A stretch of DNA of 32,000 bases from Delftia acidovorans NBRC 14950 (lineage in GTDB: Bacteria > Pseudomonadota > Gammaproteobacteria > Burkholderiales > Burkholderiaceae_C): positions 30,001 to 62,000 of the forward strand of contig NZ_BCZP01000022.1 of NCBI RefSeq assembly GCF_001598795.1. Reading direction: 5' to 3'. Position 1 is the stretch's first letter. Each line of letters starts with the position of its first letter. A model generated the notes under the pieces. The model was not told the origin of the DNA. It did no database searches and saw only the letters and a list, made by a program, of their open reading frames with translations. Made by a program: the position numbers and the translations under genes. This document shows positions 1,191 through 16,939 of the stretch, piece by piece.

Positions 1191-4100
1191 ATGGCAACCA
1201 ACCACTTCTTCCCGCCCCCCTCCACCTTCCGTTTTCTGAGGCTGTGGTTTGCCTGGCTCATGGGACTGCTGTTTTCTCTGGTACTGCCCGCGCAGGCGGC
1301 AGTCACCCCTGGAACGCTGGACTTCGGCAACAACCACACTCGCTATGCCAACGTTGCCACGCCCTACAACGAGCTGAACTTCAGCGGGCAGTGGGTCTAC
1401 TTCACCGAGGCAGACCTGCAGGCCACACAGAACGGCATCAACAGCAACGGTGATGCCATTACCTCGGACGCCCTCACTGGTAGCGCCGTCATCAAGCCGG
1501 TCAACGCCGGCGACCGGTTCAGCCTGGTCAGCGCCCGCATCTTCGCGTACGGTCAGATCAGCCAGTTCACATTGACCGGCTATGTCAACGGCAATCCTGT
1601 AGCAGGGGCAACGACGACGTTCCTCCGAAGCTCAGCAATGCAAACGAGCTTCGTCGAGGTCGATCTCAGCGCCCTGGCCAATGTGGACGAGGTGAGGATA
1701 TCCAACACCAATACCGGCGGCACCGAAGGCAGCGCCTTCGCGCTGGATGACCTCGTGGTGCTGGCCGGCGCCACGCCGACGCCCACGGTGACGTCCATTT
1801 CGCCCACCGCCGGCCCTGTCGGGGGCGGCGCCAGCGTGACCATCACCGGCACCGACCTGTCAGGAGCCACGGCCGTGCGCTTCGGTGCCACAACCGCCAG
1901 CTACATCGTCAACAGCAACACCCAGATCACCGCAACCGCCCCCGCAGGCAGTGCCGGCACGGTCGATGTGACCGTCTCCACGGCAGGAGGCACCAGCGCC
2001 ACCAGCGCCTCTGACCAGTTCACCTATGTGGCAGCGCCCACGGTGACATCCATCTCCCCCACGGCAGGACCTACCGGCGGCGGTACCACGGTGATCATCA
2101 CCGGCACCGGCTTCTCCGCAGCATCGCCGACCGGCGCCGTGCGCTTCGGCGCCACGAACGCCAGCTACACCATCAACAGCAACACACAGATCACCGCCAC
2201 CACGCCCGCAAACAGCGCCGGCACATACGATGTGACGGTGACCACGGCGGGCGGAACCAGCGCCACCAGCGCCGCTGACCAGTTCACCTATGTGGCTGCA
2301 CCCACGGTGACCTCCATCTCGCCCACGGCCGGCCCGACCGGGGGCGGCACCAGCGTGACCATCACCGGCACCAACTTCTCCGGCACCACGGCGGTGACCT
2401 TCGGCGCCACGGCCGCCACGGGCGTCACGGTCATCAGCAACACCCAGATCACTGCCACCGCGCCCGCAGGCGTGGGTACGGTGGATGTGCGCATCACCAC
2501 GGTGGGCGGCACCAGCGCCACCAGTGCAGCCGACCAGTTCACCTATGTGGCGGCACCGTCGGTCACCTCCATCTCGCCCACGGCAGGTCCCACCGGCGGC
2601 GGCACCACGGTGATCATCACGGGCACCGGCTTCGCCGCAGCACCTGGCACCGGCGCCGTGCGCTTCGGCGCCGCGACCGCCACCTACACCATCAACAGCA
2701 ACACCCAGATCACCGCCACCGCGCCCGCAGGCAGCGCAGGCACGGTCGATGTGACGGTGACCACGGTGGGCGGCACCAGTGCCACCAGCGCAGCCGATCA
2801 GTTCACCTATGTGTCAGCACCCACGGTGACTTCCATCTCGCCCACGGCAGGGCCCACCGCAGGAGGAACCTCGGTGGTCATCACCGGCACCAACTTCTCC
2901 GGCACCACTGCCGTGACCTTCGGCGCCACGGCCGCCACAGGCTTCACGGTCAACAGCGCCACGCAGATCACGGCCACCGCGCCTGCAGGCACGGGTACGG
3001 TTGATGTGCGCGTGACCACGGTGGGCGGCACCAGCGCCACCAGTGCGGCCGACCAGTTCACCTACGTGGCCGCGCCCACGGTGACTTCCGTCTCGCCCAC
3101 GGCAGGGCCAGCCGCAGGAGGAACCTCCGTGGTCATCACTGGCACCAACCTCTCCGGCGCCACGGCCGTGACCTTCGGCGCCACGGCCGCCACGGGCTTC
3201 ACGGTCAACAGCGCCACGCAGATCACGGCCACCGCGCCTGCAGGGTCGCCGGGCACGGTCGATGTGCGCGTCACTACGGTGGGTGGCACCAGCGCCACCA
3301 GTGCGGCAGACCAGTTCACCTATGTCACGGCGCCCACGGTGACCGCCATCTCGCCCACGGCCGGGCCTGCAGGCGGCGGCACCACGGTCACCATCACCGG
3401 CACCGGCTTTGCCGCAGCACCGGGCACCGGCGCTGTGCGCTTCGGGGCCACGAACGCTACCTACACCATCAACAGCAACACCCAGATCACGGCCACGGCG
3501 CCGGCCGGTGCTGCCGGCACGGTCGATGTCACCGTCACCACGGTGGGCGGCTCCAGCGCCACCAGCGCCGCCGACCGGTTCACCTATGTGGCAGCGCCCA
3601 CGCTGACCTCCATCTCGCCCACGGCAGGTCCCACGGCCGGAGGCACCTCGCTGACCCTCACCGGCACGAACCTCACGGGTGCCACGGCCGTGACCTTCGG
3701 TGCCACGGCAGCGAGCGGCTTCACCGTCAACAGCGCCACCAGCATCACCGCCACCGCGCCCGCAGGCGCCGCCGGCACGGTCGATGTGCGCGTGACCACG
3801 CCGGGCGGCACCACTGCTACCAGCGCGGCCGACCAGTTCACCTATGTGCCCGCACCCACGGTGACTTCCGTCTCGCCCGCAAGCGGTTCTTCGATTGGTG
3901 GCACCACGGTCACCCTGACCGGCACGAACTTCACCGGCGCCACGGCCGTGACCTTCGGCGGCACGGCCGCCACGGGCTTCACGGTCAACAGCGCCACGCA
4001 GATCACGGCCACCGCGCCTGCAGGATCGGCGGGCACGGTCGATGTGCGCGTCACAACGACTGGTGGCACCAGCGCCACCGGCGCGGCAGGCCAGTTCACC

Positions 4101-5456
4101 TATGTGGCCATCACGGTGACGCCCGCGACGCTGGCCGGCACGCCCAAGGTAGGCGTCTCGTTCAGCGAGACCCTGACCGCCAGCGGCGGCGCAACGCCCT
4201 ACACCTTTGCAATGGCCGGCGGCAGCACGCTGCCCACAGGCCTGTCGCTGTCGTCCGCCGGGGTGATCAGCGGCACGCCCACGGCGGCCGGGGCCTTCAG
4301 CTTCACGGTGCAGGCGACCGACAGCAGCAGCATCAGCGGCCAGCGCACCTACAGTGGCAGCGTGGCGGCAGCCACGGTGGTGCTGACGCCCGCAGCTTCC
4401 ACGCTGCCGGCTGCCAGGCTGAACACGGCCTATGCAGGGCAGACCTTCACTGCCAGCGGAGGCACGGCGCCCTACACCTACGCCAGCAGCGGCACGCTGC
4501 CGACCGGAATGACGCTCAACGCCAGCACCGGTGTTCTGGGCGGTACGCCCACCGCGGCGGGAAGCTTCACCTTCACCATCACGGCCACGGACTCCTCCAC
4601 GGGCACGGGTGCTCCGTTCACCTCGGGCAGCACCAGCTACACCCTGGTGGTGAACTCCACCAACGCCGACCTCAGCGCCCTGGCACTGAGCAGCGGCACG
4701 CTCGCACCGGGCTTTGGTGCAGGCACCCTGGCCTACACGGCCACCGTGCCCAACACCAGCAGCACCATCACGGTGACAGCCACCGCTGCCGGTGCGGGCG
4801 CCACGATCCTGGTCAACGGCGCAGCGGCCTCCACCCCGGTGGCGCTGAATGTGGGCAGCAATACCGTGTCCATCGAAGTCACGGCGCAGGACGGCACGAC
4901 CAAAAAGACCTATGTGGTTACGGTGACGCGTGAGCCACTGCAAAGCGCGTCCGGCCTGGGCGTGGATCTGGGCATTTCCAACAGTAGCCCCACCTGCACG
5001 CTGACTTCCACAAACTTCAGCACTTCCACCGCCGTGGCGGGTTCGTTGGGTCCTCTGCCAGCGGGCTACACCTATCCGCAGGCCGCCGTGGATTTCACGG
5101 CCAAGCAGTGCGCCCCCAGCAGCACGCTGACCGTGACCCTCACCTTCGCGTCGCCCGTGCCCGCCAACGCGCAGCTGATGAAGTACGACGCCACCGCAAC
5201 GCCCAAGTGGCAGCCCTTCACGCCCACCATCAGTGGCAACCAGGTCAGCTACACCATCGTGGACGGCGGCCTGCGCGATGACGACAAGACGGTCAACGGC
5301 GAGTTCGTCGATCCCGTCATCCTGGCCCTGCCTGGAGCCCCCGCAGGAGCGCAGAGCATCCCCACGCTGGACCGCTGGGGCCTGCTGCTGCTGTCGCTGA
5401 TGGCGGGAGCAGCCGGCTTCATGGGCATGGCGCGCAGGCAGCGTACCGGACGGTAA
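1191..5456 (+). CDS. Giant secreted or cell-surface repeat protein (1,421 aa): signal peptide, unknown N-domain, 9x IPT/TIG, 2x He_PIG-like Ig, cadherin-like beta-sandwich, choice-of-anchor-like domain, IPTL-CTERM anchor
   Basis: Signal-peptide-like N-terminus (..FRFLRLWFAWLMGLLFSLVLPAQA|A). About 160 aa of unrecognised N-terminal domain follow. Nine 85-88-aa repeats (P-T-V-T-S-I-S-P-T-A-G-P-x-G-G-G-T-x-V-x-I-T-G-T-x-F...V-D-V-x-V-T-T-x-G-G-T-S-A-T-S-A-A-D-Q-F-T-Y) are typical of IPT/TIG Ig folds. Two repeats of SGG.APYT...LPTG..L....G...GTPT.AG.F.FT..ATDSS are He_PIG-like. ADLSALALSSGTLAPGF...YTATVPN.SSTITVTATAAGAGATILVNG...VSIEVTAQDGTTKKTYVVTVTR is cadherin-like beta-sandwich type. A Cys-pair domain ends in TIVDGGLRDDDKTVNGEFVDPV, then the IPTL tail. 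There is no convincing SD at 1191, so the start is less certain than the frame. Confidence 0.9.
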   Translation: MATNHFFPPPSTFRFLRLWFAWLMGLLFSLVLPAQAAVTPGTLDFGNNHTRYANVATPYNELNFSGQWVYFTEADLQATQNGINSNGDAITSDALTGSAVIKPVNAGDRFSLVSARIFAYGQISQFTLTGYVNGNPVAGATTTFLRSSAMQTSFVEVDLSALANVDEVRISNTNTGGTEGSAFALDDLVVLAGATPTPTVTSISPTAGPVGGGASVTITGTDLSGATAVRFGATTASYIVNSNTQITATAPAGSAGTVDVTVSTAGGTSATSASDQFTYVAAPTVTSISPTAGPTGGGTTVIITGTGFSAASPTGAVRFGATNASYTINSNTQITATTPANSAGTYDVTVTTAGGTSATSAADQFTYVAAPTVTSISPTAGPTGGGTSVTITGTNFSGTTAVTFGATAATGVTVISNTQITATAPAGVGTVDVRITTVGGTSATSAADQFTYVAAPSVTSISPTAGPTGGGTTVIITGTGFAAAPGTGAVRFGAATATYTINSNTQITATAPAGSAGTVDVTVTTVGGTSATSAADQFTYVSAPTVTSISPTAGPTAGGTSVVITGTNFSGTTAVTFGATAATGFTVNSATQITATAPAGTGTVDVRVTTVGGTSATSAADQFTYVAAPTVTSVSPTAGPAAGGTSVVITGTNLSGATAVTFGATAATGFTVNSATQITATAPAGSPGTVDVRVTTVGGTSATSAADQFTYVTAPTVTAISPTAGPAGGGTTVTITGTGFAAAPGTGAVRFGATNATYTINSNTQITATAPAGAAGTVDVTVTTVGGSSATSAADRFTYVAAPTLTSISPTAGPTAGGTSLTLTGTNLTGATAVTFGATAASGFTVNSATSITATAPAGAAGTVDVRVTTPGGTTATSAADQFTYVPAPTVTSVSPASGSSIGGTTVTLTGTNFTGATAVTFGGTAATGFTVNSATQITATAPAGSAGTVDVRVTTTGGTSATGAAGQFTYVAITVTPATLAGTPKVGVSFSETLTASGGATPYTFAMAGGSTLPTGLSLSSAGVISGTPTAAGAFSFTVQATDSSSISGQRTYSGSVAAATVVLTPAASTLPAARLNTAYAGQTFTASGGTAPYTYASSGTLPTGMTLNASTGVLGGTPTAAGSFTFTITATDSSTGTGAPFTSGSTSYTLVVNSTNADLSALALSSGTLAPGFGAGTLAYTATVPNTSSTITVTATAAGAGATILVNGAAASTPVALNVGSNTVSIEVTAQDGTTKKTYVVTVTREPLQSASGLGVDLGISNSSPTCTLTSTNFSTSTAVAGSLGPLPAGYTYPQAAVDFTAKQCAPSSTLTVTLTFASPVPANAQLMKYDATATPKWQPFTPTISGNQVSYTIVDGGLRDDDKTVNGEFVDPVILALPGAPAGAQSIPTLDRWGLLLLSLMAGAAGFMGMARRQRTGR
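1782..4109 (+). repeat. In-frame tandem array of nine IPT/TIG-domain coding repeats (255-264 nt each)
   Basis: I located the unit boundaries by hand at 1782, 2037, 2301, 2556, 2820, 3075, 3333, 3597 and 3855, with the array ending at 4109. Adjacent units of the same subtype are visibly about 90% identical at DNA level, for example 2820-3074 versus 3075-3332. Confidence 0.9.
5358..5456 (+). other. IPTL-CTERM protein-sorting signal at the C-terminus of the giant protein
   Basis: ..AQS-IPTL-DRWGLLLLSLMAGAAGFMGMA-RRQRTGR*. This is the IPTL motif, a hydrophobic helix and a basic cluster, which is the tripartite layout of the IPTL-CTERM model (TIGRFAMs/NCBIfam; accession TIGR04174 from memory, verify). 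Confidence 0.75.
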
Positions 5457-6593: not shown

Positions 6594-7409
6594 TCAACTG
6601 CCCGTGGACGCGTAATGCCTCACCCCCATGCGCCAGGCGCCCGAGGCCAACCAGAGGAAGGCAAAGCCGGCCAGCGGCGAGACCCAGCCCAGCCAGGCCG
6701 GTGCGCCCAGCGGGTCGGGCTTGCCCAGCACGGCCAGCGCCGGGTAGTAGGCCACGCAGGCCAGCGGCACGGCGAAGGTCAGCAGGCGGCGGAACCACTG
6801 CGCGTACAGGGCCAGCGGGTACTGGGCGGCCTCGACGCTGCCGTAGCTCAGCACATTGGCGGCTTCCAGGCTTTCCACGGTCCAGAACGAGAGCGCCCCC
6901 TGCAGCACCAGGATGCCCAGGAACAGCGCCACGCCGCCAGCCACGGCGAACAGCGCCACGGCGACGGCCTGGGGCGTCCACGCCACGGCGCCCTGAGCCG
7001 TGGCAAAGCCCAGCACCAGCAGGCCCTGCAGCAGGCGGCCCAGGCGGCTGATGCGCACGTCATGGCCCATGAGCTGCAGCCACACGGGGCGCGGACGCAG
7101 CAGCAGGCGGTCGAAGGCGCCCGTGCGCAGGAACTGCGTGCCCAGCACGTCGAAGCCCCGGCCCAGCGCATCGGCCAGGGCGAACATGCAGTTCACCAGG
7201 CCATAGAACACGGCCACTTCGCCGATGCGCCAGCCCTGCACCTCGCCAAAACGGTGGAACAGCGCCCAGACGGCGATGACCTCGATGCCCGTGACCAGGA
7301 ACTGGCCCAGGGTCAGCATCAGCGCCGAGGCCGGGTAGCGCGCCTGCCCGCCCAGCGAGGCCAGCGCCAGGCGCAGGAACATGGACAGCGATCCTTTGTG
7401 CTTGGCCAT
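6594..7409 (-). CDS. ABC-2 family transporter permease (DUF990 / ABC2_membrane_6 type)
   Basis: Polytopic hydrophobic protein. MAKHKGSLSMFLRLALASLGGQARYPASALMLTLGQFLV... is typical of the COG3694/COG4587 permease pair. The ATG at 7409 lies 6 nt after the stop of the upstream permease. The ORF-track start at 7493 would overlap the neighbour by 79 nt. Confidence 0.8.
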   Translation of the reverse strand: MAKHKGSLSMFLRLALASLGGQARYPASALMLTLGQFLVTGIEVIAVWALFHRFGEVQGWRIGEVAVFYGLVNCMFALADALGRGFDVLGTQFLRTGAFDRLLLRPRPVWLQLMGHDVRISRLGRLLQGLLVLGFATAQGAVAWTPQAVAVALFAVAGGVALFLGILVLQGALSFWTVESLEAANVLSYGSVEAAQYPLALYAQWFRRLLTFAVPLACVAYYPALAVLGKPDPLGAPAWLGWVSPLAGFAFLWLASGAWRMGVRHYASTGS

Positions 7410-9270: not shown

Positions 9271-11055
9271 ATGGCAGCTGAAGGCAATGCAAGCCAGCTC
9301 GTAGGAATCGTCACGCTGCTGGGGGCCGCCGTGGTGGCCGTGCCGCTGTTCAAGCGGCTGGGCCTGGGCGCCGTGCTCGGCTACCTGGCCGCCGGCCTGG
9401 CCATAGGCCCCTACGGGCTGGGCCTGGTGACGGACGCGCAGACCATCCTGCACGTGGCCGAGCTGGGCGTGGTGATGTTCCTCTTCGTCATCGGGCTGGA
9501 GATGAAGCCCTCGCACCTGTGGGATCTGCGCGGCCAGATCTTCGGGCTGGGCAGCCTGCAGGTGGTGGTGTGCGCGCTGCTGCTCACGGGCGTGGGCATG
9601 GCCTTCGGCTTTCCGTGGCAGGTGGCCTTCGTCAGCGGCGCGGGCTTCGTGCTCACCTCCACGGCCATCGTCATGCAGGTGCTGGCCGAGCGTGGCGACA
9701 TCCTGGCGCCGCGCGGCCAGCGCATCGTCTCCATCCTGCTGTTCGAGGACCTGCTCATCGTGCCGCTGCTGGCCGCCGTGGCCTTTCTGGCCCCGGCCGA
9801 TGCGGCGCCCGTGGCCACCTCGCCCCTGTGGCAACGCGCGGGCGTGGCCCTGCTGTCGCTGGGCGCGCTGGTGGGCGCGGGCCTGTGGCTGCTGAACCCG
9901 CTGTTCCGCATCCTGGCCAAGGCCAAGGCGCGCGAGGTGATGACGGCCGCCGCGCTGCTGGTGGTGCTGGGCGCCGCCCTGCTGATGGAGATGGGCGGCC
10001 TGTCCATGGCCATGGGCGCCTTCGTGGCGGGCGTGCTGCTGTCCGAATCCTCGTTCCGCCACCAGCTGGAGGCCGATGTGGAGCCCTTCCGCGGCCTGCT
10101 GCTGGGCCTGTTCTTCCTGGGCGTGGGCATGGCACTGAACCTGGAGGTGGTTGCGCTGAACTGGCGCATCGTGGGCATGGGCGTGGTGGCGCTGATGCTG
10201 GGCAAGGCGCTGTGCATCTATGCCGTGGCCCGCGTGGCGCGCAGCAGCCATGCCGATGCACTGGACCGCGCCATCCTCATGGCCCAGGGCGGGGAGTTCG
10301 CCTTCGTGCTGTTTGCCGAGGCGCTCAAGCTCGGCGTGCTCGACCCCGAGGTGCATGCCAACATGACGGCCATCGTCGTGCTGTCCATGGCCATCACGCC
10401 GCTGGTGGTGGTGCTGCACAAGCGCCTAGCCGGCGCCGAGGCCGTGTCGCTGGACGGCGTGGAGGCGCCGCAGGACCTGCGCGGCAACGTGCTGGTCATC
10501 GGCTTCGGCCGCGTGGGCCAGATCGCCAGCCAGGGGCCGCTGGCCCGTGGCGCCAAGCTGTCCATCATCGACAACGACCCCGACGTGATCCGCAACGCCG
10601 AGCCCTACGGCTTCAAGGTCTACTTCGGCGACGGCGCGCGCGCCGACATCCTGCATGCGGCCGGCGCCAGCCATGCCAGCGCCATCCTGGTCTGCGTGGA
10701 CAGCAAGGCCGCCGCCACGCGCATCGTGGAGAACGTGCGCCACGAATGCCCGCACGCCCGCCTCATCGTGCGCGCCTATGACCGCGAGCACGCGCTGGAG
10801 CTCATCCAGAAGGACGCCGACCATGTCGTGCGCGAGAGCTTCGAGTCCGCCCTGCTCATGGGCCGCCATGCCGTGCTGGCCCTGGGCGCCACCGAGGACG
10901 AGGCCCAGACGCTGGAGGCCGAAGTGCGCGGCCGCGACACCGAGCGCTTTGCGCTGGAGACCGCCGGCGGCAACTTTGCGGGGCGCGCACTGCTGCTGGG
11001 CAACATCGAGCGCATCGATCCGCCCCGGCACGACAAGCCCACCGCCATGGATTGA
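9271..11055 (+). CDS. CPA2-family monovalent cation:proton antiporter with C-terminal RCK/TrkA-N domain (KefB/KefC-like K+ efflux)
   Basis: N-terminal Na+/H+ exchanger-type membrane domain (..LLGAAVVAVPLFKRLGLGAVLGYLAAGLAIGPYGLG..). This is followed by the Rossmann motif VLVIGFGRVGQ of TrkA-N. AAAGGAAA SD upstream. Confidence 0.9.
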   Translation: MAAEGNASQLVGIVTLLGAAVVAVPLFKRLGLGAVLGYLAAGLAIGPYGLGLVTDAQTILHVAELGVVMFLFVIGLEMKPSHLWDLRGQIFGLGSLQVVVCALLLTGVGMAFGFPWQVAFVSGAGFVLTSTAIVMQVLAERGDILAPRGQRIVSILLFEDLLIVPLLAAVAFLAPADAAPVATSPLWQRAGVALLSLGALVGAGLWLLNPLFRILAKAKAREVMTAAALLVVLGAALLMEMGGLSMAMGAFVAGVLLSESSFRHQLEADVEPFRGLLLGLFFLGVGMALNLEVVALNWRIVGMGVVALMLGKALCIYAVARVARSSHADALDRAILMAQGGEFAFVLFAEALKLGVLDPEVHANMTAIVVLSMAITPLVVVLHKRLAGAEAVSLDGVEAPQDLRGNVLVIGFGRVGQIASQGPLARGAKLSIIDNDPDVIRNAEPYGFKVYFGDGARADILHAAGASHASAILVCVDSKAAATRIVENVRHECPHARLIVRAYDREHALELIQKDADHVVRESFESALLMGRHAVLALGATEDEAQTLEAEVRGRDTERFALETAGGNFAGRALLLGNIERIDPPRHDKPTAMD

Positions 11056-11077
11056 ATCAGCCCCGGGCACAGCGCGC

Positions 11078-11467
<390 letters not shown>

Positions 11468-11555
11468 GGAATGCTCCTTGTGTCGCTGCGCAGGGCACGC
11501 ACTGGACCCGCACCAGGCTGCACCGGATACACACCTGCCACCACCGGCAGGCCCT

Positions 11556-11909
11556 CTATTTCAGCCTGAAGACGACGGGCACGCGCGTCCACATGCTGTC
11601 CGGCACGCCGTCGCGCGTGCCGGGGACAAAGCGCCACGTCCGCACGGCGTCCAGCGCCTCCTGGTCGAGCAGAGGATAGCCGCTGCTGTCTGCCACATCC
11701 ACGGCCACTGCCTTTCCGCTGGCGCCCACCAGAACCCGCAGCACCACCTTGCCTTCCTGCTCCAGCCGCCTGGCTTCATTGGGATAGGCCGGCATCTTGT
11801 TCTCGCTGGCCTGCCTGTCAGGCACAGGCTGCACCACGCCTGCCGCAGCCGGGCCGCCGGCCAGCAGGCCCAGGGTCAATGCAAGGATGGCGCAGCGCAT
11901 GCGGGGCAT
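11556..11909 (-). CDS. Periplasmic TonB C-terminal domain protein (energy-transducer TonB family, C-domain only)
   Basis: Signal peptide MPRMRCAILALTLGLLAGGPAAA. Then ..PAYPNEARRLEQEGKVVLRVLVGASGKAVAVDVADSSGYPLLDQEALDAVRTWRFVP.. is the TonB_C fold signature. AGGAG lies 8 nt upstream of the ATG at 11909. The ORF-track start at 12014 overlaps the helicase gene. Confidence 0.75.
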   Translation of the reverse strand: MPRMRCAILALTLGLLAGGPAAAGVVQPVPDRQASENKMPAYPNEARRLEQEGKVVLRVLVGASGKAVAVDVADSSGYPLLDQEALDAVRTWRFVPGTRDGVPDSMWTRVPVVFRLK

Positions 11910-11989
11910 TCGGAAGGCTCCTGGATGGGGACGGGATGGGGGACTGGATGGGGGTGTGGATGGCAGTCGCGGACTGGTGCGGCCCCGGA

Positions 11990-14344
11990 TCATCGCATGC
12001 CCTCCACCCGCCACCAGCGCGGCAGCAGCGCCTGCACCTCGCCGCGCCGATAGCGGTCGTCGATGAGAAAGACCACGCCGCGGTCGCGCTCGCTGCGGAT
12101 GACGCGGCCTGCGGCCTGGACCACCTTGCGCAGCCCCGGGTAGAGGTAGCTGTAGTCATAGCCCTTGTCCGCGCCGAACTGGCGGTCCATGGCGCGCTTC
12201 ATCTCTTCGTTCACGGGATTGACCTGGGGCAGGCCCAGCGTGGCCACGAAGGCGCCGATGAGGCGCTCGCCGGGCAGGTCCACGCCCTCGGAGAACGCCC
12301 CGCCCAGCACGGCAAAGCCCACGCCCTGCCCGGCTTCGGTGAAGCGGGCCAGGAAGGCCGCGCGGCCCTCCTCGTCCATGGACGGGGTCTGCAGCCAGAC
12401 CGGCAGATCGGGATGGGCGCGCTGCAGGCATTCGGCCACGCGCTGCAGGTAGTCGAAGCTGCTGAAAAAGCACAGATAGTTGCCGGGCCGGCGCGCGTAC
12501 TGCGCGGCCACGAGGTCGGCGATGGGCCGCAGCGAACGGTCGCGGTCGCGGTAGCGCGTGGAGATGTGGCCGGCCACCTGCACATCGAGCTGGTCGGCCT
12601 GGAAGGGCGAGTCGGCCTCCAGCCAGTGCGTGCCTTCGGGCAGGCCCAGGATGTCGCGGTAGAAGTGCGGCGGGCTCAGCGTGCCCGAGAACAGCACCGA
12701 GGCATGGGCCGCCGCATGGCGTGCCGCCAGGTGGGGCGCGGGCACCACGCAGCGTATGCACAGCGTGGAGGCCGGCGTGCGACGGGGACCTGAGCGCCCG
12801 GGCAGCAGGTGGACATCGAACAGCGCATGGCCGCCGAACTGCTCGGCCAGCGCCATGAACTGCAGCGCTTCCCAATAGAAGTCCAGAACCGGGTCGCCGG
12901 GCAGCATGGGGCTGTCGGCATTGGCGTCGGCGATGGCGGCCACGGCGCGCTGCACGGCGCCCAGCAGGCCTGCGGGCACTTCCTCATGGGCCTGGTAGCT
13001 GGCGGTCTGCTCCCTGTTCAGCGCACTCCAGCTGCGGCTGAGCCGGTCCAGCGCCTTGCGCACGGCACCGGTGGCGGACTTGCGGGCGGCAGCCAGGGCG
13101 AACTGCGACAGCTCGGCCGTGTACATGCGGCGCGCGCGCTCGAGCAGGTTGTGGGCCTCGTCCACCAGCACACCCACCTTCCATTGCTGGGCCTGGGTGA
13201 GCGCGTACAGCATGGCGGCGCTGTCGTAGAAGTAGTGGTAGTCGGCCACGACCACATCGCTCCAGCGCACCAGTTCCTGGGCCAGGTAGTAGGGGCAGAT
13301 GTCGTGCGCCAGCGCCACGGCACGCACGGCAGGCGGGTCCCAGGGTGCCTGCTGCAGCGCGGCGGCGCGCGCGGCGGGCAGGCGGTCGAAGAAGCCGCGC
13401 GCCAGCGGGCAGGAGTCGCCGTGGCAGGCCTTGTCGGGGTGCTCGCAGGCCTTGTCGCGCGCCAGGATGGCGAGCACGCGCAGCCTTGCGGGCGGTGCGG
13501 GTGGCGAGGGCAGCGGTTGTGGCGCAGCCGGTTCCTGCGGCGGTGGTTGGTGCTGCTCGGCGATCTGCCGGTTCACGCTGGCCAGCGCCTGCAGCGCCAG
13601 GCCATGGCCCGTGCCCTTGGCCGTGAGGAAGAACAGCCGGTCCAGGCCCTGGTCGGGCATGGCCTTGAGCATGGGGAAGATGGTGCCCAGCGTCTTGCCG
13701 ATGCCCGTGGGCGCCTGCGCCATCAGGCACTGGCCGCCCTGCTGCGCGCGCGCCACGCGGTAGACGGCCACGGCCAGCTCGCGCTGGCCCGCGCGAAAGC
13801 CCTGCATGGGAAAGCGCAGCGCGGCCAGCGCCGCCTCGCGCGCCGCGCGGTGGGCGGCCTCGCTGCGCGCCCAGTCCAGGAACAGCGCGCATTGCTGCTC
13901 GAAGAAGGCGCGCAGCGTGGCCGCGTCTTCCTCCTGCACCAGCACGGTTTCCTCCGAGTTGCCCACGTTGAAATACACCAGCGCCACGCGCAGCCGCTGC
14001 AGGCCGCGCGCCTGGCACAGCAGATGGGCGTAGATGCGCGCCTGGGCCCAGTGCAGGGCGCGGTGGTGGGCGCGCACGCCCTCGATCTGGCCGCGGTAGG
14101 TCTTGATTTCCTCCAGCTGGCCGGCCTGGGGGTCGAAGCCGTCGGCGCGGCCGCGCACGCGCAGGTCGCCGTACTCACCGGCCAGGCTGATCTCGGTCTC
14201 GTAGTCCTTGCCCCTGCGCGACTGCACCAGGCTGTGTCCGGCCATGCCCTCCAGCGCGCTGGGCGCGGGCGTGAAGCGCAGGTCCAGGTCGCCCGCGCGC
14301 GCCGTGAACTCGCACAGCGCGCGCACGGCCACGGTGTAGCTCAC
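11990..14344 (-). CDS. Fusion of an N-terminal PD-(D/E)XK-like nuclease module with an XPD/DinG-family (Rad3-like, FeS) ATP-dependent DNA helicase, 784 aa
   Basis: Nuclease-like motif ..RADGFD-x7-LEEIKTY... Walker A AQAPTGIGKT and DEAH box VLVDEAHNL. Four Cys lie between them (ACEHPDKACHGDSCP ... DICPYY), as in XPD/DinG FeS helicases. The C-terminal helicase domain is ..GGAFSEGVDLPGERLIGAFVATLGLPQ...QAAGRVIRSERDRGVVFLIDDRY. The start is taken at the GTG at 14344, which overlaps the upstream TGA (GTGA). The rest of the 951-aa ORF-track ORF overlaps the FAN1-like gene. Confidence 0.85.
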   Translation of the reverse strand: MSYTVAVRALCEFTARAGDLDLRFTPAPSALEGMAGHSLVQSRRGKDYETEISLAGEYGDLRVRGRADGFDPQAGQLEEIKTYRGQIEGVRAHHRALHWAQARIYAHLLCQARGLQRLRVALVYFNVGNSEETVLVQEEDAATLRAFFEQQCALFLDWARSEAAHRAAREAALAALRFPMQGFRAGQRELAVAVYRVARAQQGGQCLMAQAPTGIGKTLGTIFPMLKAMPDQGLDRLFFLTAKGTGHGLALQALASVNRQIAEQHQPPPQEPAAPQPLPSPPAPPARLRVLAILARDKACEHPDKACHGDSCPLARGFFDRLPAARAAALQQAPWDPPAVRAVALAHDICPYYLAQELVRWSDVVVADYHYFYDSAAMLYALTQAQQWKVGVLVDEAHNLLERARRMYTAELSQFALAAARKSATGAVRKALDRLSRSWSALNREQTASYQAHEEVPAGLLGAVQRAVAAIADANADSPMLPGDPVLDFYWEALQFMALAEQFGGHALFDVHLLPGRSGPRRTPASTLCIRCVVPAPHLAARHAAAHASVLFSGTLSPPHFYRDILGLPEGTHWLEADSPFQADQLDVQVAGHISTRYRDRDRSLRPIADLVAAQYARRPGNYLCFFSSFDYLQRVAECLQRAHPDLPVWLQTPSMDEEGRAAFLARFTEAGQGVGFAVLGGAFSEGVDLPGERLIGAFVATLGLPQVNPVNEEMKRAMDRQFGADKGYDYSYLYPGLRKVVQAAGRVIRSERDRGVVFLIDDRYRRGEVQALLPRWWRVEGMR

Positions 14345-16017
14345 GCGGCCTCTCCCAGCGGCTGGCCGCGCCACTGGACATGGCACACGCGCACGGGAAT
14401 GCCGTGCTCGGCACAGTACTGCAGCCAGCGGATCTGGTTGTCCTGCAGCTTGTCGCCGGGGGCCTTGGCCTCGACCAGTTCGTAGCGGCGCTCGGCCGGC
14501 CAGAAACGCACCAGATCGGGAAAGCCCGTGCGGTTGGCCTGCACGTCGCGCAGCAGCCGCGCAAAGAACAGCTTGAGGTGGGCGGCCGGAATGCAGTCCA
14601 GCGCCAGCGCCAGCAGCGGCGCGCTCAGCGTGCCCCAGAACACGAAGGGCGACTGCAGACCCTGCTTGTCGGCATGGCGCTGCACGATGACCTCGCGCCA
14701 GCTGCCATCGTCCAGATGCGCCAGGCATTCCTCGAACAAGGCTGCGCGGCGCTGCACGAAGTCGGGCGCGGACAGGTCGGCCGGGCCGCTCTGGAACGGG
14801 TGGAAGAAAGCGCCCGGCAGCGGCGCGAAGATGGCCGGCCAGCACAGCAGGCCGAACAGCGAGTTGATGAGCGCGTTCTCCACGTAGAACACCGGCGCGG
14901 CGTCGCTGTGCCAGTGGTCGCGCAGCACGTACTCGACGGAGCTGGGCCGCGCCGGCAGCTCCAGCTCCACGTCCATGCGCATCTGCGCCACCACGGGCGC
15001 CAGCGCCGCCGCACGCCCGCGCGCGCCCTGCCCCAGGCTGCGGCGCAGGCGCGGCAGCATGCGCGCCACGCGCTGCAGCTCCTCGTCGCTCTCGGGCTGG
15101 GCCTGGGCGGCCTGGGCCAGCGCCATGGCATCGGCAAAGCGCTCCATGCGCTCGTACACGCGCATGCGCCGGTGGCGGGCGCCGGGGTAGCGGCTTTGCG
15201 CATAGGCCTGCTCGGCACGCTCCCAGTCCTGCATGCGCTCGCAGGCCTGGCCTATGCGCAGCAGCACCTTGGCGCGGCGCTGCTCCAGCCAGGCATTGCC
15301 GCTGGCGCAGCCGGCCACCTGCTGCAGCAGCGCATCGATCTCCACGCCCTCATCCAGCGCCGCGCGGCAGGCCTGCAGGGCCAGGTAGCCATCGACATCG
15401 GCACGCGACTGGAAGGCCCGCGACGCCGCATCGAAGGCCACGGCCTCGTAGCGGAACACGCCCAGGTCGGCCAGCACGAATTCCGACCAGTCCTGGTAGA
15501 GATTGCCGAAGAACATCAGCCGAAAGCGCTCGCACAGCGCGCCCACCATCACGCGCCAGGCGGCTTCGCCGGCTGCGACGCCCTGGGGCTGCCACTGCGC
15601 ATAGGGCCTGGGCGCCTCATGCAGGGGCTGCAGGGCCTGCAAAAGCTCGGCCTTGCGCAGGCCTGAATGAATGGGTGCGCCTGCGAACAGCTGCAGCAGC
15701 TCGGGCTTGGTGTGCAGCGCAAACAGCTCCTCCAGCGCCATGGGGTGGCCCGCGTCCAGCCAGCCCAGCTCCAGCAGGGGCGCGGCTGCCTCGGCAATGC
15801 CGGGGATCTCTTCGTACACCAGCTTGCCGGCCCGAAACCACGGCCCGCGCCGCATCAGCAAACGCACCATCAGCGCCCGCGAGGGCTGGGGCAGCTGCGT
15901 GAACCGGGTGAGGAATGCCTGCTCGGGCGCGTCCAGCAGATCGCCGTAACGCTGGCCAATCCAGTCCAGCGCACGCTGGAAGTTGTGCAAGTAGTAGAAG
16001 CGGTGGGGAGGGAGCAT
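14341..16017 (-). CDS. FAN1-like VRR-NUC domain nuclease (bacterial Fanconi-associated nuclease 1 homolog type), 558 aa
   Basis: The C-terminus ..GFPDLVRFWPAERRYELVEAKAPGDKLQDNQIRWLQYCAEHGIPVRVCHV carries the VRR-NUC PD-(D/E)XK motif (PD...E-x-K). A long helical, TPR-like middle region and the N-terminus MLPPHRFYYLHNFQRALDWI fit the roughly 560-aa bacterial FAN1 architecture. Confidence 0.85.
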   Translation of the reverse strand: MLPPHRFYYLHNFQRALDWIGQRYGDLLDAPEQAFLTRFTQLPQPSRALMVRLLMRRGPWFRAGKLVYEEIPGIAEAAAPLLELGWLDAGHPMALEELFALHTKPELLQLFAGAPIHSGLRKAELLQALQPLHEAPRPYAQWQPQGVAAGEAAWRVMVGALCERFRLMFFGNLYQDWSEFVLADLGVFRYEAVAFDAASRAFQSRADVDGYLALQACRAALDEGVEIDALLQQVAGCASGNAWLEQRRAKVLLRIGQACERMQDWERAEQAYAQSRYPGARHRRMRVYERMERFADAMALAQAAQAQPESDEELQRVARMLPRLRRSLGQGARGRAAALAPVVAQMRMDVELELPARPSSVEYVLRDHWHSDAAPVFYVENALINSLFGLLCWPAIFAPLPGAFFHPFQSGPADLSAPDFVQRRAALFEECLAHLDDGSWREVIVQRHADKQGLQSPFVFWGTLSAPLLALALDCIPAAHLKLFFARLLRDVQANRTGFPDLVRFWPAERRYELVEAKAPGDKLQDNQIRWLQYCAEHGIPVRVCHVQWRGQPLGEAA

Positions 16018-16052
16018 GGGCCTGGCAGATCGGGCAGCCAGGCCGCTCGAAA

Positions 16053-16070
16053 ACTGTATCTTTATACAGT
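16053..16070 (-). promoter_or_regulatory. LexA (SOS) box upstream of the FAN1-like/helicase operon, overlapping a candidate sigma70 promoter
   Basis: aCTGTatctttatACAGt is an exact CTGT-N8-ACAG with an AT-rich spacer, 36 nt upstream of the ATG at 16017. On the minus strand, TTGATA (16081-16076), a 17-nt spacer and TACAGT (16058-16053) form a plausible -35/-10, with the -10 inside the box. Confidence 0.7.
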
Positions 16071-16126
16071 CATCATATCAAACCCGGTAGTGCTCACTTC
16101 GCGCAACGGACTTGCCCCGGGCAGGC

Positions 16127-16939
16127 TCATCCGGCCAGGAAGCCGCCATCGGTCGCCAGGCAGTGCCCGACCACAAAGGCCGCCTCGTCCGACATCAGCC
16201 AGACGACGGCCGTGGCCACCTCCTGCGGATGGCCCATGCGCCGCAGCGGCAGGCCCGCCGCCACGGCATGCATGTCGGCAATGCCCGAGCCCAGCATCAT
16301 GTCCGTGACCACGCGACCAGGGGCAACGGCGTTGATGCGGATGCCGCGCGGCGCGTACTCCATGGCGGCGGCGCGGGTCAGCGACAGGGCCGCCGCCTTG
16401 GAGGCGCCGTACAGCGACAGGCCCGGGTTGGGATTGCGTATGCCGCTGACGCTGGTGTTGTTCACGATGGTGCCGCCGCCCGCGGCCAGCATGGCCGCCA
16501 GTTCATGGCGCATGGCGTGGAAGACCGCACGCACATTCGTGTCGAAGACCTGGGAGAAGACCGCGTCATCCTGCTCGGCCAGCGCGGCGCGCCGCTCCTG
16601 GAAGCCCGCATTGTTGAAGGCCGCGTCCAGCCGCCCGAAGCGCGCCACGGCCTGCTCCACCACCGCCGCCATGTCCTCCTGCCGCGTTGCATCGCAGGCC
16701 AGGAAAAGGCCGTCCGCCCCCTGCTGTCGGATTTCCTGCTCCAGCTGCAGGCCCAGCTCACGGCGGCGCCCCGTGACCACCACGGCGGCAGCGCCCTCCT
16801 CGGCCATGCGCAGGGCGGTGGCCCGGCCTATGCCGCTGGTGGCGCCCACCACCAGGCAGACACGCCCCCGGAGCCGCCCCGATGGTGCAAGGGCCGGCAG
16901 GGGGCCGGCCAGTTCCAACTGACGCTGCTGCATGTCCAT
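16127..16939 (-). CDS. SDR family NAD(P)-dependent oxidoreductase
   Basis: Cofactor motif VVGATSGIGRA, NNAG, and catalytic S...YGASKAA (Y-x3-K). The ATG MDMQQRQ at 16939 has GAAGGA about 9 nt upstream. The ORF-track start at 17110 overlaps the upstream hydrolase gene. Confidence 0.9.
   Translation of the reverse strand: MDMQQRQLELAGPLPALAPSGRLRGRVCLVVGATSGIGRATALRMAEEGAAAVVVTGRRRELGLQLEQEIRQQGADGLFLACDATRQEDMAAVVEQAVARFGRLDAAFNNAGFQERRAALAEQDDAVFSQVFDTNVRAVFHAMRHELAAMLAAGGGTIVNNTSVSGIRNPNPGLSLYGASKAAALSLTRAAAMEYAPRGIRINAVAPGRVVTDMMLGSGIADMHAVAAGLPLRRMGHPQEVATAVVWLMSDEAAFVVGHCLATDGGFLAG

Follow-up and report, generated by a model that had tools for sequence, protein, structure and literature searches.

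What does a bacterium do with a FAN1 nuclease, and does the enzyme have a partner? The question is raised by two adjacent genes of Delftia acidovorans NBRC 14950, both on the minus strand of a 32-kb stretch of contig NZ_BCZP01000022.1 that was analyzed as a whole (32,000 nucleotides [nt], here called the window). The first gene encodes a nuclease of the FAN1 family, and the second encodes a helicase that carries a nuclease domain of its own and belongs to the EndoDinG subgroup. The two genes overlap, lie behind a LexA-type box, and recur together in many other species. We consider it probable that they form a two-gene repair operon, repressed by LexA and induced by DNA damage, that deals with crosslinks or stalled forks. 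A sequence-only reading of the same DNA had given coordinates and features for the locus that all proved correct, but it left the minus strand unstated.

Identity of the two proteins

The upstream gene had been read as encoding a FAN1-type VRR-NUC protein of 558 amino acids (aa), and profile and sequence-to-structure comparisons bore this out. The protein has the architecture of bacterial FAN1, namely an N-terminal helix-turn-helix (HTH), a SAP, a TPR, and a VRR_NUC domain at the C terminus, with Pfam matches to FAN1_HTH (1.4e-35), FANC_SAP (8.8e-20), and VRR_NUC (1.7e-34) and a weak match to TPR. It contains the motifs GFPDL (G498-L502), ELVEAK (E513-K518), and DNQ (Q528). The crystal structure of Pseudomonas aeruginosa FAN1 (PaFAN1; 4r89) aligned with it end to end (E = 1.6e-184), the P. 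aeruginosa gene showed 54% identity over the full length, and human FAN1 structures aligned with the C-terminal half (E ~1e-23). The loss of catalytic D/E/K residues on alignment, which would have spoken against a FAN1 nuclease, was not seen. D501, E516, K518, and Q528 were invariant in an alignment of 46 diverse bacterial FAN1 proteins, and D501, E516, and K518 aligned with PaFAN1 D507, E522, and K524, whose catalytic roles have been described (PMC9635880).

No Pfam match to a UBZ was found in Delftia FAN1, where the HTH begins at residue 7; PaFAN1 likewise starts without a UBZ (PMC9635880). A search of 1.84 billion representative proteins returned 2858 FAN1 relatives, 791 of them below 1e-30, and nearly all of the top 150 were full-length proteins of ~550 aa. 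NCBIfam gave no family for FAN1, and no PADLOC model matched the protein. PaFAN1 unhooks interstrand crosslinks, acting as both a 5'-flap endonuclease and a 5'-3' exonuclease (PMC4201288). The Delftia gene is an ortholog of P. aeruginosa FAN1, and its flap and crosslink activity is predicted from PaFAN1 and eukaryotic FAN1.

For the downstream gene, an N-terminal PD-(D/E)XK module (ADGFD...LEEIK) had been proposed, fused to a DEAH-box superfamily 2 (SF2) helicase with a four-cysteine iron-sulfur (FeS) signature. The module is present as RADGFD (D68) and LEEIK (E79, K81), and the fusion was recovered by profile, sequence-to-structure, and fold comparison alike. The helicase motifs are Walker A GIGKT (K217), DEAH (395-398), and motif VI (R747). 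Pfam matched Helicase_C_2 (2.1e-39), DEAD_2 (1.2e-11), and, weakly, HBB and left residues 1-177 unassigned. These residues were accounted for by a sequence search of the PDB, in which 9kqh (FmaDinG) matched residues 5-779 (E = 6.4e-93; by segment, 8e-27 for residues 5-245 and 6e-63 for residues 289-779). H37, E51, R66, D68, E79, and K81 aligned with FmaDinG H40, E54, R73, D75, E88, and K90, and mutating any of these FmaDinG residues abolishes nuclease activity (PMC13650095). Among 71 orthologs, the six nuclease residues, Walker A K217, DEAH, and motif VI were invariant. The nuclease domain and the helicase core had diverged equally in this set, at a median identity of 63% each; thus, the nuclease is under the same constraint as the motor.

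The AlphaFold2 model of the helicase (pLDDT 80, pTM 0.75) was compared by Foldseek, as had been proposed. The best match by far was 9kqh (E = 4.3e-55; TM 0.76/0.80 over 794 columns). XPD and DinG followed at E ~1e-23 to 1e-26, the TM values for XPD, DinG, and CasDinG were ~0.45-0.57, and DdmD was much weaker than 9kqh (E ~1e-11). In NCBIfam, the matches to DinG, YoaA, and Rad3 all remained below threshold, with equivalog scores of 87 against a cut-off of 680 for YoaA and 83 against 598 for DinG.

In FmaDinG, a PD-(D/E)XK endonuclease that prefers Mn2+ is joined to a 5'-3' FeS helicase driven by ATP; the protein is the first characterized EndoDinG and feeds DNA into its own nuclease, with the two activities coupled (PMC13650095). 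The subgroup was defined and named in 2025 (PMC11981726), and the structure was solved and assayed in 2026 (PMC13650095). The physiological role of the helicase partner had been called poorly defined in the sequence-only reading, and the EndoDinG authors themselves call the role of this class unknown. The architecture is no longer undefined, being that of EndoDinG. The Delftia protein has every architectural element of EndoDinG and is identified as one; Mn2+-dependent cleavage and 5'-3' unwinding are expected of it on the model of FmaDinG.

The Delftia helicase also contains a proline-rich low-complexity insertion of ~25 aa, QHQPPPQEPAAPQPLPSPPAPPA, at aa 262-288 (13481-13561), between motor domain 1 and the FeS domain. 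It could not be aligned to FmaDinG, is 3 residues longer in another Delftia ortholog (P0001), and has no regular secondary structure in the AlphaFold2 model.

A different function is brought to mind by the PADLOC model of type IV-A CRISPR-associated DinG, which the helicase core matched at 1.7e-107. Together with the weak fold similarity to DdmD (E ~1e-11) and the frequency of nuclease-helicase pairs among defense systems, this match would fit an anti-phage or anti-plasmid system that degrades invading DNA, a reading that we regard as highly improbable. The PADLOC model is a generic DinG model and the only one matched, with none for FAN1. The four FeS cysteines are kept, whereas the FeS module of CasDinG is degenerate (PMC13650095), and the fold lies at TM 0.76-0.80 to EndoDinG versus ~0.45-0.6 to CasDinG. 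NCBIfam Csf4, the type IV family, scored 22 against a cut-off of 400.

Overlap of the genes and conservation of the pair

The GTGA overlap claimed at 14341-14344 is present in the sequence (Table 1). The helicase frame is open from 14845, and the GTG at 14344 was taken as the real start; the NCBI-annotated start of the Delftia ortholog P0001 is identical (MSYTVAVRALCEF). Within the genus, identity reaches 99% for the helicase against a Delftia lacustris protein and 98-99% for the nuclease against Delftia proteins.

Table 1. Positions of the genes, domains, and control sites of the FAN1-EndoDinG locus in the window
Feature	Position	Strand	Basis
FAN1 gene, 558 aa, ATG start	16017..14341	-	Open reading frame (ORF) listing and translation; Pfam; full-length 4r89 match
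VRR-NUC catalytic domain of FAN1, aa 439-549, D501/E516/K518/Q528	14371..14703	-	Pfam VRR_NUC 1.7e-34
EndoDinG-class nuclease-helicase gene, 784 aa, GTG start	14344..11990	-	9kqh match; AlphaFold2; Foldseek
Stop/start overlap GTGA	14344..14341	-	FAN1 TGA shares 4 nt with helicase GTG
N-terminal PD-(D/E)XK endonuclease, aa 1-175, H37/E51/R66/D68/E79/K81	13820..14344	-	FmaDinG alignment
XPD-type SF2 helicase core, aa 178-784	11993..13813	-	Pfam DEAD_2 and Helicase_C_2; invariant motifs; Foldseek
FeS cysteines C300/C307/C312/C350	13295..13447	-	Align with the four FmaDinG cysteines; invariant in ortholog alignment
LexA box, CTGT-N8-ACAG, minus-strand reading ACTGTATAAAGATACAGT	16054..16069	.	Sole CTGT-N8-ACAG in the 32-kb window
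Sigma-70-like promoter, TTGATA, 17-nt spacer, TACAGT	16053..16081	-	Sole promoter-like site in 10900-16400, either strand

For the conservation of the pair, genomes were scanned with the FAN1 alignment, one genome per species. At least 596 species matched, and the best 80 loci were kept. In 70 of these 80 best species loci, a helicase with its nuclease domain lay directly 3' of FAN1 on the same strand; the 10 exceptions were all Pseudomonas, including P. graminis, P. avellanae, P. viridiflava, and P. congelans. In total, 104 FAN1 loci were retrieved, of which 102 had sufficient length for a judgment. A lack of conserved pairing had been named as grounds for giving up the proposed module, and the pair was found in 90 of the 102 loci, always in the order FAN1 then helicase. 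The translational coupling that had been proposed was likewise borne out: a stop/start overlap was kept in 83 of the 90 paired loci (4 nt in 77, 8 nt in 5, and 16 nt in 1).

The identities of FAN1 and of the helicase co-varied (r = 0.90, n = 80). The pair was also found in Mangrovitalea, Halomonas, Stutzerimonas, and P. protegens, whose loci have only these two genes in common and differ in everything that flanks them, and the genes still overlapped in a distant pair whose FAN1 and EndoDinG are only 33% and 32% identical to the window proteins. The arrangement is conserved across Burkholderiales, Pseudomonadales, and Halomonadaceae, and among Beta- and Gammaproteobacteria the two genes nearly always make up such a coupled operon behind an SOS-type operator. 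Metagenomic contigs with a FAN1 gene 100% identical to PaFAN1 carry the same helicase as the following gene (58% identity) with an 8-nt overlap. We take these contigs to be P. aeruginosa, and on this assignment the P. aeruginosa pair PA1865-PA1866 (by published locus tags) is the same module as the Delftia pair. Possible gene fusions were also considered; no FAN1-helicase fusion was seen among the top FAN1 relatives, all of ~550 aa.

One metagenomic protein of 1174 aa (P0033), an ortholog of the helicase, was a candidate for such a fusion and was rejected, its extra ~400 aa being an unrelated insert of low quality and low complexity rather than FAN1. The insert lies between Walker A and the FeS domain, and the gene caller probably read through an insertion there. 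In a short metagenomic contig (L106:231-2900), a VRR-NUC region of 29% identity precedes an XPD-type helicase of 28% identity, both distant, and the order of nuclease then helicase may extend to such remoter relatives.

Each gene was also encountered without the other. In the lone-FAN1 Pseudomonas loci (L041-L043, L045, L047, L050, L051, L056, L059, and L071), no helicase was found within 10 kb and unrelated genes come next; P. putida, P. protegens, and the PaFAN1-identical contigs retain the pair. On a chromid of Cupriavidus campinensis (L087:5767-8363), EndoDinG stands alone: FAN1 is absent both from the surrounding 6 kb and from the remainder of the record. The EndoDinG gene appears to be split over two frames near 6720-6780, for which a frameshift, pseudogene formation, or a fault in the assembly might be responsible. 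The stand-alone EndoDinG of Listeria monocytogenes (779 aa) is annotated only as "ATP-dependent DNA helicase."

The solitary genes bear on whether the two enzymes work together at all. They might instead be co-regulated but independent, sharing an SOS promoter and coupled translation for economy while acting on different substrates and forming no complex. For example, FAN1 might act on flaps and crosslinks and EndoDinG on forks, R-loops, or G4, like other DinG-family helicases. We consider this unlikely, although it carries appreciable weight: each gene occurs alone in some lineages, with an SOS-type operator kept where checked (Cupriavidus, Listeria, and Pseudomonas), and in vitro neither PaFAN1 nor FmaDinG needs a partner for activity (PMC4201288, PMC13650095). 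Mere co-regulation would not readily account for a fixed gene order, for a stop/start overlap kept in 83 of 90 loci although no flanking genes are common to the orders concerned, for the parallel divergence of the two proteins, or for the persistence of the pair at 33% and 32% identity. Such linkage is more typical of functional partners.

Operator upstream of the pair

An SOS box had been mentioned, and it is real: CTGTATCTTTATACAG is found at 16054-16069. It lies 36 nt 5' of the FAN1 ATG, in the 109 nt that separate FAN1 from the upstream SDR gene, and overlaps the sigma-70-like promoter, as would be predicted for a LexA operator. Terminator-like sites all fell inside coding sequence and were not used as operon ends.

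The box is conserved with the pair. A perfect CTGT-N8-ACAG occurred within 160 nt 5' of FAN1 in 60 of 86 paired loci, and an SOS-like palindrome occurred in 80 of the 86 when CTGG/CCAG half-site variants were allowed. With the variants included, 10 of 14 FAN1 loci without a detected helicase also had a palindrome (two of these 14 are truncated contigs). The 1.81 Mb of fetched DNA contained 105 such palindromes in all, of which 90 were these upstream sites and ~15 lay elsewhere. Several Pseudomonas loci carry CTGT-N8-CCAG, lone Pseudomonas FAN1 genes among them.

In Achromobacter and Bordetella, a symmetric variant, ACTGGATAAATAnCCAGT (CTGG-N8-CCAG), occupies the exact position of the canonical box beside the same TATGAT. 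Variant sites of this form lie at ~9960-9990 in L002, L004, L006, L012, and L011 and at ~7635-7660 in L023. The joint change of both half-sites hints at either an altered LexA specificity or a weaker site.

At the P. aeruginosa locus (L090:5949-5964), CTGTATGCATGAACAG has perfect arms and lies ~18 nt 5' of the GTG start of FAN1 (PA1865). A 2026 transcriptome study reported UV-C induction of both PA1865 and PA1866 and ciprofloxacin induction of PA1865 (PMC12796719), and the LexA-like box may explain the UV induction of both genes.

The stand-alone Cupriavidus EndoDinG has a perfect LexA box at -95. In L. monocytogenes (L089:5930-5945), a Cheo box (Gram-positive LexA), GAACGTAGGTTC, is found at -66 of EndoDinG beside an extended -10 element. 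Because the stand-alone Listeria gene has this box, SOS control of EndoDinG may be older than its partnership with FAN1. LexA sites were predicted earlier 5' of beta-proteobacterial "Helicase c2" genes (PMC3323433).

Proposed function of the operon

For a LexA-repressed repair operon, the following course of events can be proposed. DNA damage would cause LexA to be cleaved and the operon to be transcribed, and coupled translation would supply roughly equal amounts of FAN1 and helicase, which might form the stoichiometric complex that had been suggested. Where a crosslink or bulky lesion blocks a fork or gap, the helicase would load on the single-stranded 5' arm and open the duplex up to the lesion, creating or exposing a 5'-flap junction for FAN1. 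FAN1 would then incise and digest past the lesion, the helicase-linked nuclease would trim the displaced strand, and gap filling or RecA-dependent repair would come last.

Several points weigh against this proposal. PA1865 and PA1866 are stated to lie outside the known LexA, PrtR, and AlpR regulons of P. aeruginosa (PMC12796719). No clear Shine-Dalgarno sequence was seen 5' of either start codon. FAN1 occurs without the helicase in 10 Pseudomonas loci, on a Vibrio second replicon, and in one metagenomic contig, and EndoDinG occurs without FAN1 in Cupriavidus, Listeria, and other Firmicutes; with each partner found by itself in some lineages, the partnership cannot be an obligatory one. The FmaDinG nuclease acts on 3'-ended strands and its motor moves 5'-3' (PMC13650095). 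The order of events given above is conjecture, because this polarity does not obviously dictate how EndoDinG would cooperate with a 5'-flap nuclease. In addition, the contact between FAN1 and EndoDinG and every function assigned here to the Delftia proteins are predictions from sequence.

Genomic context and other features of the window

The neighbors of the pair in Delftia are ABC-2 transporter genes, a Na+/H+ exchanger, a glyoxalase-family gene, the SDR gene, an S15 peptidase, TctC receptors, a porin, and regulators. No mobile-element, cas, or other defense genes were found among them, and the 32-kb window contains no CRISPR arrays, tRNAs, or Rfam RNA families. Scans of viral contigs with either protein gave no relatives, and a phage origin of the pair was rejected on this account. 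Matches in the plasmid collection were all to megabase-size replicons (second chromosomes or chromids), apart from Firmicute records.

These results bear again on defense against invading DNA. The neighborhood of the pair varies between genera, as a defense system's might. Nevertheless, neither csf or cas genes nor an array lies nearby, as type IV would have; LexA operators are conserved 5' of the pair, and sequence identity broadly tracks genus groupings, as for a core gene and not a patchy mobile one. Defense is therefore unlikely, given the operator and the housekeeping context, the FeS cysteines that have been kept, the lack of relatives in viral contigs, and the crosslink-unhooking chemistry of PaFAN1 (PMC4201288). 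The preference for repair over anti-phage activity that had been expressed in the sequence-only reading is upheld by the conserved operators, the housekeeping neighbors, and the lack of viral relatives, and further by the reported UV induction of PA1865/PA1866 (PMC12796719).

The GC content of the window is uniform at ~70%. Directly 3' of the helicase stop, a small TonB_C-like periplasmic ORF is found at 11556-11909 (minus strand), separated from the helicase by a 12-bp tandem repeat of 2.8 copies at 11923-11954; the longest call of this ORF, 11556..12014, would overlap the end of the helicase gene. Past it lies the glyoxalase/bleomycin-resistance-family gene at 11078-11467. Farther away, the product of an ORF at 1191-5456 on the plus strand is a surface protein of 1421 aa; it has nine TIG/IPT repeats together with He_PIG and cadherin-like domains and bears an IPTL-CTERM sorting signal. 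Its repeats correspond to a 264-bp unit, nine in tandem at 1782-4108, and its codon-position GC pattern is atypical for the genome.

Comparison with known systems

PaFAN1 (PA1865; PDB 4R89, 4R8A, and 5Y7G) is among the closest known relatives of Delftia FAN1, with which it shares its length, the NTD-SAP-TPR-VRR_NUC order, and the catalytic D/E/K residues. Its locus also has the downstream helicase, the stop/start overlap, and the upstream CTGT-N8-ACAG. However, the genes overlap by 8 nt in P. aeruginosa but by 4 nt in Delftia, the spacer of the P. aeruginosa box is less A/T-rich (CTGTATGCATGAACAG), and PA1865/PA1866 are absent from the P. aeruginosa LexA regulon list (PMC12796719). Human and eukaryotic FAN1 (KIAA1018) have a homologous SAP-TPR-VRR_NUC region (E ~1e-23) with the same catalytic motif, and eukaryotic FAN1 works in interstrand-crosslink repair (PMC4201288). 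It has a UBZ that binds ubiquitinated FANCD2, whereas Delftia FAN1 and PaFAN1 have none. Control also differs: recruitment by FANCD2-FANCI in eukaryotes stands against a LexA operator in Delftia, where the partner is an operon-encoded helicase-nuclease.

The EndoDinG proteins of Finegoldia magna (FmaDinG, 9KQH) and Bdellovibrio share with the Delftia helicase the order PD-(D/E)XK, MD1 with FeS and Arch, and MD2. FmaDinG and the Delftia protein have the six nuclease residues and four cysteines in common, at an identity of only ~27-33%. Firmicute EndoDinG genes stand alone, as in Listeria, and the Delftia protein has the additional proline-rich insertion of ~25 aa. The lineages published so far are mostly anaerobes.

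Like the Delftia helicase, E. coli DinG and YoaA are FeS-containing 5'-3' helicases of SF2; LexA controls both, which function in damage tolerance (PMC13650095), and they gave weak sequence and fold matches; they lack an N-terminal nuclease and are not paired with FAN1. AddAB, RecBCD, Dna2, and ExoDinG follow a shared logic in which a motor feeds a PD-(D/E)XK or exonuclease site (PMC13650095), and FANCJ, an XPD-family helicase of the Fanconi pathway, is a detectable homolog of the helicase core (E = 9e-13). These systems differ from the Delftia pair in subunits, polarity, and nuclease placement, and none is encoded with FAN1. A functional analogy of the pair to eukaryotic FAN1 with FANCJ or DNA2 is offered as a hypothesis. 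CasDinG (type IV CRISPR) and DdmD (plasmid defense) share the XPD-like core, as reflected in the PADLOC and Foldseek matches. In contrast, the Delftia locus has no cas or ddm neighbors, its FeS cysteines are intact, it has an SOS operator, and in both fold and sequence its helicase lies much nearer to EndoDinG.

Both protein families and a predicted LexA site for the helicase were already published, and the two Delftia proteins are new members of these families. No description of FAN1-EndoDinG coupling was found in the open literature, paywalled work, notably Iyer et al. 2006 on VRR-NUC, lying outside this scope. The EndoDinG papers (PMC11981726, PMC13650095) mention neither FAN1, nor VRR-NUC, nor Burkholderiales, nor Pseudomonas in this context, and another paper remarks in general terms that KIAA1018-clade genes adjoin DNA-metabolism genes (PMC9635880). 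The recognition of FAN1 plus EndoDinG as an SOS-type operon, translationally coupled and widely conserved, to which the structurally studied PaFAN1 also belongs, appears to be new.

Significance for bacterial FAN1

Bacterial FAN1 has so far served as a structural stand-in for the human nuclease, which repairs crosslinks and modifies repeat expansion. The pairing described here gives each protein a candidate partner and a regulatory context and makes it possible to test directly what bacterial FAN1 does in vivo. Should the proteins act together, they would provide a second, FAN1-based route for crosslinks and blocked forks besides UvrABC and recombination. A bolder and more doubtful proposal is that FAN1 and EndoDinG form a complex that serves as a self-contained, SOS-inducible, UvrABC-independent machine for interstrand-crosslink unhooking or the restart of blocked forks, a two-polypeptide bacterial counterpart of eukaryotic FAN1 plus FANCJ plus DNA2 and possibly their evolutionary source. 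If this were true, the FAN1-EndoDinG complex would be a genetically tractable model for the delivery of FAN1 to lesions.

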